Assembly (NCBI RefSeq): GCF_003704095.1
Contig: NW_020846901.1
Location: forward strand, 186,001 to 250,000
Source: Pocillopora damicornis
Taxonomy: Eukaryota
Direction: 5' to 3'
DNA: 64,000 nt
Position 1 is the first letter of the stretch. Each line of letters starts with the position of its first letter. The notes under the pieces are model-generated. The model ran no database searches. It was not told the DNA's origin and saw only the letters and a program-made list of their open reading frames with translations. A program made the translations under genes and the position numbers. Shown here in pieces: positions 6,501 through 9,500 of this stretch.

Positions 6501-9500
6501 TTGCAGGTGCTCAATAAAAACAATTACTGTAGGACGGTGGGGCCTCGAAAATGAAAATTCGATATTTTTCGAGTGCCGCAATCGATTTCCTCTTTCACGT
6601 TCCCCTCATGACTTTCAAGAAGCATGCAATTAGGCTAGTTGCGTTTAAAAACCATTTCGCGAAAAAGACCAACAAGGCTTTTCAGGTTCAAGGGTAAAAC
6701 TAACCGCTATCACACCACTAACCTTTCGGAGTTGTTCTGCTTTGTCTTCGATAGCAGCTTGCTTTAAAAGTTTTATTAGATATTCCACCCTCGTTTGCAA
6801 ATGCTTATCTTGGGGCTTCAATGTCCCGGGAGGAAGGATCTAGAAGAGGAAAAAAAAAACCGATTTATGTCATAAGAGTCAGGTTAATGATCTCCGTTTT
6901 CGGTAAAATGAGAGAAAATGGGCGCTGGCCGTGTGATTTTGTCATGTTGTTATGCAAGACACTTCAGCCTTCCACTTTTTCATTCTGCCCAGCGAACTGT
7001 CAAAGAAACTTGATGAATTTCTGGGAGGGGGAGAGAGGGAGGGTATTATAACTGAAATGAACCTCCCTCCCCTGGTGGGGAAGGGGGAGGGGTATGCAGT
7101 CATCTCGGTCTCTCCATGCCATAGAAACTGGAGAAACATTCAGCATTAACGAGCTTCTACTTCAAAACGATTCAAACTGAAACGTTAACAAGAGAGCAGC
7201 TCTTTCACCTTAGACGACAGCGACAGACTCTGATCAGCCTTGATGGCCTCCCAGCTTCCTAATCCATATTCATAGATTCCGACCAGTAACATGGAGTCAT
7301 CAGGAACATCCCATGGGACTCCCCAGTGTACACTTTTGGCAGGTGCAGTCAGACGGAACCTAAAAAGGTAAAAAATGCAGAATAAAACAAAAGACACAGG
7401 GCCATGAAGGAGGAAAATCAAGAAAAAAAGTCTTGCTATGCAAGCCTTGAACTGTTCAACCTGTCCCTAAAATAAAATTTAACTATAGTCGTTTACTCAC
7501 TTTCGTCTAGCGTCACTGTCTGCTGGCATGATGACGGCAAGTGATTCAAGTTCTTCTTCGTGTTTCAACACCGATGGTGCATTTATGGTCACGTTACTGA
7601 GTCGTACAGTGGCTCCACGCTTTTTACCTGTTACGAAAGTCCACAAAAAATTACAGACCCCGTTCTCACGAGATTCAATTAAAACGCTTTTTAATCAGGG
7701 ATATTGGATTCGTAACTGAGCCAAACTAACCCATAAATTTTTTTCAAAGAATCTAGTTTCACAGGTAAAAACAGTAACCTCTACTTCTCTGAACACCATG
7801 ATAAAATATTGACAAATTAAGGCAATTCTTTTCTTCTTGACGCTTATACAGAAACTAAAGATGCCAGTTCGACAACGGCAGTTCATAACAATAAGTCCTT
7901 GCCATCATCTTGTACTTGATTTAGCATTTATATGTTATCTGTGCGGTTAAGACCTTATAACCCATTTATTGTTTAACTTCAAGTATACAATGATGAGGAT
8001 TCGTTTTTAAGGGTTGCATCAAGAGTAGAATACAATCAAAGGCTATGCACAACAACTTACCATCAAAGTTTGGATCTTCCTTCAGTTTTTCTTCATATTC
8101 TGCCACAGCTCGCAAACAACCATTATGTAAAATATCTGCCAGTCTAACAAGGTCTTCAGTTGGTTTATCTTCCAGTTCAGCATCAACTGCAATTGCGTCA
8201 AGTCTGTCACCGAGAGAGATTTTGAAAAATGTGTCATTCCAATATCATACAGTAAAGCGGTTTGGCTCATAGCATTGGAGAATCTCAAAGTAATTTGTTA
8301 TTATCAACTGAGTTGATAACGTAATGAAATAGGCCACCGTTAAAGAGTTTCAAAGCTAACGTTTCGAGCGTTAGCCCTTCGTCAGAGCTTTGAAACTCTT
8401 TAGGCGGCCAATTTACGTTACAAACTCGGTTGATAATATCAAATGACCCTGCTATACTCTCCCATCGACGCAGCACCCCAGTTTCTTTCGAAACTTACCC
8501 CCTTTGTTGGAAAATCTCAGTCTCTAGTTTGTCAAGTCTTGATCAACAACTTTTCACCCCAGGAAAATTCTTTATTTAATCCATAAACACATAAAAACTC
8601 ACATGCCCACCTATAACAGATCCGGAATTCATGAAGTTGTTACATTTCGTAAAGAAACACAGTACCAGTGCTTGAAGACTTAAAGTTAAAAAAAAACCCA
8701 TCAGAATACCTGGATCTTGGTCTGCCAAACTTCTTATAACTTTTAACAAATCTGATGTAAAAAAAAAAAGTGAGCATAGGTTAGCGAGGTATACGGGAAA
8801 GTAATGATTTATCTTACACTTGTAAAGAAAGGTAGTCCATCCTAAACCTTCCCCAGCTATATTTGTTGATATGAAAGATGTTTGTTATGAGAACTTTATT
8901 CAGTAAAAACTAACAGATGAATGTCACGTTTCCAACCTTCGTATTTCAGCATCACTAAAGCCTTCAACATCTTCTCTTTTGATTGTGCGTGGCCGTCCAC
9001 GCTTCCTCTTAATCCCTTTGCCTTCTGCACCAGAATCATCATCACTCTCTGATTCTGATTTTTTCTTCCGACTCGTTTTCCTTCTGTAGCTTGTTTCTTG
9101 CTCATTGTCACTGTGCCCGGCTTTGCCATAATTCATCTGTTGAATGAACAACGTGATTTCGTATTCAATAGATTTTACATCGAATGTCGAAATAAATTCA
9201 ATATTGCATTGGTTTTCCTTTGCTTCGCTAGGTAAGAGGTTCAGAAAAGAAACACCACTCTCTCAGCTAATTAAATGCAAAACTAAAACCAATCACGCCC
9301 TAGTCACGTGCAATACTGAAACCAATCATGCCGTAGTCACGTGCATTTTCCTTCTCTTGAGGCAATTCCCTTATCTAGGCTGTGAGTTCGTATTACTGCA
9401 TGCGATATTTTCATTTAAGCATATTCTGATTCGTAATTAGTCACCTTGGTTGTAGCTTAAAAACTTTCATCTGAGAAGCGATATACGAAGGGGAAAAAAG

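Follow-up and report, generated by a model that had tools for sequence, protein, structure and literature searches.

The minimal type I hammerhead ribozymes of Penelope-like elements (PLEs) are, in the text available from Cervera and de la Pena (2014; PMC4209133), characterized by intact core boxes, an extra base separating positions 9 and 10.1, a G10.1-C11.1 pair and a palindromic stem III with no loop, and they occur as thousands of mostly solitary copies of truncated elements, with pairs on opposite strands lying close together. The same text reports no cleavage by a single minimal motif and low cleavage by dimers and trimers; where stem III was forced to form, activity was for the most part seen at Mg2+ levels outside the physiological range. 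Insertions of EN+ PLEs (Pen2a_Av and others) are described in excerpts of two reports as inverted, 5'-truncated copies with one-sided tails, target-site duplications (TSDs) and palindromes at the junction, a layout that their authors read as self-priming (PMC3846280; PMC8557442). Coral non-LTR retrozymes, which are small non-coding repeats containing a type I hammerhead, form head-to-tail tandems of 220-240 bp and use a canonical, efficient ribozyme, and more than 6,000 type I motifs, predominantly minimal ones, were counted in Acropora millepora (Cervera and de la Pena 2020; PMC7229834, as excerpted). The hammerhead described here lies within a CHD1 intron of Pocillopora damicornis, in a stretch of 64,000 nucleotides that we refer to as the window. 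Domesticated intronic ribozymes likewise combine a self-cleaving-type motif with sense orientation inside an intron; the amniote ultraconserved hammerheads and the CPEB3 ribozyme are conserved and active as monomers. The CHD1 copy belongs to the known class of PLE minimal hammerheads and is an ordinary, likely inert transposon footprint. Our overall reading, to which we assign a probability of about 0.88, is that a CHD1 intron holds an old fold-back insertion, truncated at its 5' side, from a Neptune-like Penelope element, and that the hammerhead in it is probably inactive and, as far as the gene is concerned, neutral.

The hammerhead motif and its host intron

Pfam analysis of 44 open reading frames identified the host gene as CHD1/2-type on the minus strand, with frames matching two Chromo domains, SNF2, Helicase_C, CDH1_2_SANT_HL1 and HTH_CHD1_Hrp3 in the CHD1 order. 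The intron that hosts the insertion (8204-8709, minus strand, GT..AG) was spliced in three of four RNA runs, as revealed by a contig joint from 8203 to 8710 that skips 506 nucleotides with CT..AC ends, and the exon downstream of it matches PF18375 (CDH1_2_SANT_HL1). The flanking exons were uncovered in the remaining run, X19, which hence provides evidence neither way on splicing. Because the gene is on the minus strand and this intron is spliced, the motif is in sense orientation to CHD1.

An earlier note had described a minus-strand hammerhead at 8341-8402, and inspection of the minus strand from 8402 to 8341 reproduced that motif letter for letter. All on the minus strand, a perfect 17-bp stem I opens with its 5' strand (8402-8386) and is followed by the CUGACGA box (8385-8379), an extra A (8378), stem II GGGC/GCUC (8377-8366; 4 bp with one G-U pair and a UAAC loop), GAA (8365-8363), the palindromic ACGU of the loopless stem III (8362-8359), U17 (8358) and the 3' strand of stem I (8357-8341). 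The minimal core, from CUGACGA to U17, thus occupies 8358-8385, with the predicted cut between 8358 and 8357. The CUGACGA and GAAA boxes, GUU as the NUH site, A8378 between positions 9 and 10.1, the G10.1-C11.1 pair and the palindromic ACGU at 15.2-16.2 lacking loop 3 match the features given in the available text of PMC4209133, in agreement with the earlier identification as a minimal type I hammerhead of PLEs that is thought to need dimerization. The CHD1 copy differs from that description in its 4-bp stem II, in a stem I of 17 bp created by a junction (3 bp in native copies) and in a GUU triplet where its own family has GUC.

The motif hairpin had a predicted folding energy of -35.8 kcal/mol (z-score -6.4), a stability equaled in 0 of 200 shuffles, and it extends for about 50 imperfect pairs beyond the 17-bp stem I, a point absent from the earlier note. 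A loose scan for CUGANGA...GAAA returned 13 matches in the window, among which only the CHD1-intron motif had a hammerhead layout when judged by eye. An Rfam scan of the window found no match (0) at E values up to 1; we attribute this null to the limits of the models and do not count it against the motif, and the hammerhead call is therefore based on the anatomy of the motif and on published descriptions instead of a covariance model.

Several other features of the region were recorded. A weak Pyr_redox match (E 0.005) at 3716-4087 on the minus strand, downstream of CHD1, is perhaps an exon of the next gene. RNA contig depth was high at 9128-9311 (10-20 contigs per run; about 9268, in the region of the minus-strand ORF 8924-9262), which points to another multi-copy repeat, in intron 9137-9507. 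A second dispersed repeat family, with copies 70-80% alike and in both orientations, has several members within CHD1 introns and elsewhere (13630-13824, 11467-11602, 18358-18451, 19747-19941, 20032-20225 and 37904-38054), and a third family or subfamily is represented at 12461-12658, 20907-21101 and 21836-22044. Direct repeats of 60-100 bp, spaced by about 7.2-8.8 kb at approximately 31000-34240 and 38180-42000, suggest a tandem duplication of a gene or segment.

A fold-back insertion and its parent element

The hammerhead is part of a 219-bp insertion (8288-8506) made of two opposed 3' ends of a seemingly Neptune-like Penelope element. A 13-bp TSD flanks it, with the tail-side copy (8507-8519) identical at 12 of 13 positions to the other copy (8275-8287); a repeat as good as this one, with its single mismatch, appeared in 0 of 2000 random draws from the window. 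The inverted arm (121 bp, 8386-8506; element sense on the plus strand) carries an asymmetric tail at approximately 8455-8506, the length of which (about 50-55 bp) was read off the arm alignments, and its inner end (8386-8402), which on the minus strand is the stem I 5' strand, joins the core at a 3-nt GCT overlap. The sense arm downstream of the predicted cut (70 bp, 8288-8357, minus strand) contributes its first 17 nucleotides as the stem I 3' strand. The two arms are identical at 55 of 68 positions. Boundaries corresponding to 8288-8506 are common to the family copies, with sharp ends across 30 aligned loci, and TSDs of at least 9 bp with at most one mismatch were found in 15 of 21 fold-back copies, including the CHD1 copy.

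The insertion therefore presents the inverted, 5'-truncated copy, one-sided tail, TSD and junction palindrome of EN+ PLE insertions. Relative to the excerpted reports (PMC3846280; PMC8557442), its TSD of 13 bp compares with 8-10 bp in the rotifer cases (PMC3846280), its tail of about 50-55 bp with a cited 30-40 bp, and it has no ORF. The retrozymes of PMC7229834 are head-to-tail tandems in the text available, whereas the CHD1 copy is a head-to-head stub with a single, minimal core and an ORF-bearing parent; having no tandem units, it is not a retrozyme. Two fixed end points, separated by about 55 nt, recur among family copies L002-L030, and the longer end can fall on either arm; these ends match the two RT start sites described in the accessible part of PMC11167929, and the tail is longer than the cited 30-40 bp. 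A sister copy of the same family (about 21353-21526) is in opposite orientation, tail-first, between an 8-bp TSD (21346-21353 / 21527-21534), and its core is deleted, as the earlier note had stated for the copy at about 21.4 kb. An inverted pair of third-family repeats (20910-21044 / 21909-22043) brackets this core-less copy.

The family is abundant. Searching the organism's own genome with 8280-8460 gave 2,251 candidates, 40 of which were scored and, excluding the window itself, were 77-85% identical. The 27-nt core had 693 exact genome copies as compared to 0 for a reversed control, so the core is not a chance occurrence, and for a 31-nt core the assembly contained at least 2,174 copies within two mismatches (reversed control, 0). 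DNA depth at the core was approximately 8,000-9,500 times that of the flank in four of four runs; because summed contig depth does not equal copy number, the assembly counts are preferred.

Longer family copies run on upstream into a reading frame. A probe from its GIY-YIG region gave 406 candidates, and in 24 of 24 probe-selected loci that were fetched (setting aside the gap-filled source locus, L086) the same hammerhead lies about 100 nt past the stop-codon position of the GIY-YIG frame, which corresponds to the pLTR/3' repeat location of PLE minimal hammerheads. GIY-YIG was matched in four of eight frames scanned. One locus, L098, encodes RVT_1 (E 3e-7), then a frame with a cysteine-rich, zinc-finger-like linker, CARSRCKTC (CxxxxCxxC), and then GIY-YIG (E 3e-4), although the score of the last match (21.4 bits) is just below the Pfam cut-off of 22.6. 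The arms of the CHD1 copy are about 80% identical to the L098 3' end (81/101 and 96/120), and L098 represents a different, seemingly younger subfamily. Such a linker ahead of the GIY-YIG region is a Neptune trait, and the excerpted text of PMC8557442 describes a Cys-rich RT-EN linker as common to Neptune and Nematis. By its domains and linker, the parent is likely a Neptune-like Penelope element with the RT, Cys-rich linker and C-terminal GIY-YIG of EN+ PLEs, the linker being a Nematis trait also. No intact full-length parent ORF was seen in six stretches of 8 kb. An RT frame at L111:5761-6753, about 2.7 kb further upstream, was considered as a family member and left unassigned.

The unusual length of stem I can be traced to the inversion. 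Native copies have ...ATCGCT before the core and a stem I of 3 bp, found in 50 of 70 exact-core copies sampled (a set that includes 25 picked for GUU); among these 70, only the CHD1 copy reached 17 bp, with the next longest at 8 and 6. Set against a native stem I of 3 bp, the stem of 17 bp is thus the inversion junction, and in the CHD1 copy the GCT at which the inverted arm ends doubles as the native stem strand. In the mechanism that we infer, the element endonuclease would nick the intron and the reverse transcriptase would copy just the element's final ~120 nt, after which synthesis would fold back or switch strand inside the hammerhead by way of the 3-nt GCT/AGC complementarity of the native stem I. 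The outcome would be a pair of opposed 3' ends, a tail on one side only and a duplication of 13 bp, with the native 3-bp stem I turned into a long hairpin.

An unlikely variant of this scheme has the reverse transcriptase running off hammerhead-cut RNA, such that the arm end at the scissile bond would be a footprint of cleavage in vivo. The end of the inverted arm does coincide with the nucleotide that immediately follows the predicted cut, and the same junction has three exact genome matches (the CHD1 copy included) plus L015, the cores of the other copies being decayed. The same point, however, is also the 3-nt stem I microhomology, a neighboring read-through junction at a CTGACG overlap is equally common (3 exact matches), and most of the 30 aligned copies, by eye, read through the scissile site. 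No enrichment of junctions at the scissile bond was seen in this comparison of 3 versus 3 exact matches, where the strict patterns miss decayed copies. A further locus, L058 (G000:C203 near 212595), contains short tandem units of the antisense stem II region directly upstream of an intact core, an array that we read as repeated slippage at the inversion junction.

Capacity for cleavage

Folding with ViennaRNA predicts that GACG of the core pairs with CGUU and gives the monomer's core a probability of 0.009 of being open. The core of the CHD1 copy would thus pair with its own cleavage-site strand. Since stem III lacks a loop, a single copy cannot close it; the active form would need a second copy and an exchange of stem I strands, with both stem III and stem I formed between partners. 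The active double hammerhead was placed 12-14 kcal/mol above the ensemble, even as an artificial covalent tandem, in a folding model that leaves out tertiary contacts and protein help. The idea that the long stem I is thermodynamically worse than the native one found no support, as the same model puts the native copy further from the active dimer (19 versus 14 kcal/mol), and only a kinetic argument is left. Given the native value of 19 kcal/mol, the model shows the motif class to be self-locked, not the CHD1 copy uniquely. No second core was found in the 64-kb window, and the insertion holds one; the sister copy lacks its core and is in opposite orientation, so no cis partner was found.

RNA contigs starting at 8360-8362 (runs X15 and X17) were considered as cut ends and rejected: DNA contigs start at 8361-8362 too. 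Because DNA contigs also stop there, the RNA contig stops at 8360-8362 are graph breaks, and the RNA runs, being contigs from poly(A)/cDNA material, are of a kind that cannot show RNA ends. In the portion of PMC11167929 available, cleavage by the anole Poseidon hammerhead required the protein of its element, and RNA-seq reads neither began nor ended at its site. GUU is a weaker yet usable triplet that is cleaved by engineered hammerheads, according to the excerpt of PMC9217987, a point against inactivity. Taken together, the loopless stem III, the predicted folding, the single core, the change from GUC to GUU and the precedents from other Penelope hammerheads suggest that the CHD1-intron hammerhead is likely inactive.

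A quite improbable alternative is weak conditional activity, in which the motif would cut slowly with another family transcript or a Penelope protein and would not regulate CHD1. Its core boxes are intact, family-matching contigs number in the hundreds in each of four RNA runs, which suggests that partners may exist, protein-assisted cleavage has been shown for the anole element (PMC11167929, as excerpted), and in the folding model the long stem I and GUU would weaken the inactive fold relative to the native copy (14 versus 19 kcal/mol). These points are offset by the required exchange of stem I between partners, when that stem is predicted to be locked in a hairpin of about 60 pairs, and by the coincidence of the RNA contig stops at 8360-8362 with DNA contig stops, which are not cut ends.

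Age, conservation and significance for CHD1

The departure of the triplet from GUC, already remarked on in the earlier note, is confirmed at the family level. C occupies position 17 in approximately 97% of family contig depth, exact cores are followed by TAGC in 25 of 693 cases, and GUU in the CHD1 copy is a minority change from the family's GUC. When scored against what most of 83 family arms have, the CHD1 copy shows 7 events over 65 nt of its sense arm and 13 over 122 nt of its inverted arm; it is thus about 10% decayed, and the family median is 7 events in 66 nt. The inner 62 nt are less diverged than the outer arms (2/62 versus 19/153; nominal p = 0.043, before ascertainment), where one of the two inner events is an insertion and placing it just outside the stem would lower p. 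This contrast speaks a little against the neutral reading, with the proviso that the CHD1 copy was singled out from thousands for being clean, a choice that bears on the p value.

The insertion was present in four of four DNA runs, with contigs entering the element from both flanks; one of the four, X13, is 2-3% diverged in the neighboring intron. None of the joints shown for the four DNA runs corresponded to an empty site, and a polymorphic insertion, which the earlier note had allowed for, was not observed. The single CHD1 orthologue among the matches listed (L126, from metagenome contigs; 90% identical over 48 amino acids) has a complete, 278-bp orthologous intron between the same two exons, from which both the element and the hammerhead are absent. 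In this comparison with one distant orthologous intron, the conservation typical of a domesticated ribozyme is missing (absent in 1 of 1), and the runs that share the insertion diverge by no more than about 3%. The CHD1 copy, a repeat copy with a TSD, also differs in that respect from domesticated intronic ribozymes. One outcome that the earlier note had set against its own proposal, a polymorphic or species-specific insertion among thousands of equivalent neutral copies, has largely been realized, in view of at least 2,174 cores, approximately 10% decay and an L126 intron that lacks the copy.

Intact cores near other genes were surveyed in a sample of 54 exact-core loci (2,856 candidate stretches, 219 selected, 150 scanned). 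A Pfam-matched frame lay within 1.5 kb of the core at 13 loci. At the 11 with a single core, it was on the gene strand in 7 and on the opposite strand in 4; the remaining two carried cores on each strand, and in one case these lay between two exons of deoxyhypusine synthase. Exons of one family flanked the core on both sides in only two loci, too few for a test of orientation bias. This small sample gave no sign of purging of sense copies, a weak result with two loci shown to be intronic. The portion available of a preprint (10.64898/2026.07.22.740005) describes exclusion of retrozymes from introns in Xenopus, these being tandem retrozymes, unlike the present stubs. In the deoxyhypusine synthase locus (L076:1482-1527, G000:C2785), two opposed intact cores lie between the exons, one of them in sense. 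At L046:852-1527 (G000:C149), an intact GUC core in sense orientation is located 20 nt past the end of a MATH/TRAF-domain frame, possibly in a 3' UTR; an effect on a host mRNA is more plausible for this core than for the CHD1 copy.

CHD1 is known to be dosage sensitive from human genetics. The earlier note had raised a dosage-sensing role with dimer-gated cleavage, and the corresponding explanation, that the host co-opted the motif as a switch cutting CHD1 pre-mRNA at high transcription, is in our judgment highly improbable. The sense orientation, the intact core, the lower divergence of the inner part relative to the arms (p = 0.043) and the presence of the insertion in four of four DNA runs are in its favor. 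However, the copy was selected as clean among thousands, and 19 of 83 family arms are also unchanged in their first 17 nt; the single change in the core falls on the cleavage triplet, at position 17; the motif is absent from the orthologous L126 intron; and intact sense cores occur near other genes too (7 same-strand versus 4 opposite, plus the deoxyhypusine synthase intron). With at least 2,174 similar cores, about 10% decay, a 17-bp stem that is the inversion junction and an empty L126 intron, the dosage-sensing role is unsupported. We give very little credence to the stronger proposal that an inversion-built, pre-organized hammerhead, helped by a partner transcript or the Penelope protein, cleaves CHD1 pre-mRNA in vivo and that selection kept its inner 62 nt; if true, a dimer- or protein-gated ribozyme would control a chromatin gene, and transposon activity or the level of CHD1 transcription would feed back on a chromatin remodeler.

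The reading of an old fold-back insertion that is probably neutral for CHD1 gives the copy itself little import, as a textbook footprint of a Penelope-like element. The thousands of short fold-back copies, with their TSDs and junctions scattered across the hammerhead, are a data set on the formation of inverted arms and on whether the ribozyme cuts in vivo (PMC11167929), and a genome-wide tally of sense versus antisense intact intronic cores could probe the activity of these ribozymes without bench work.
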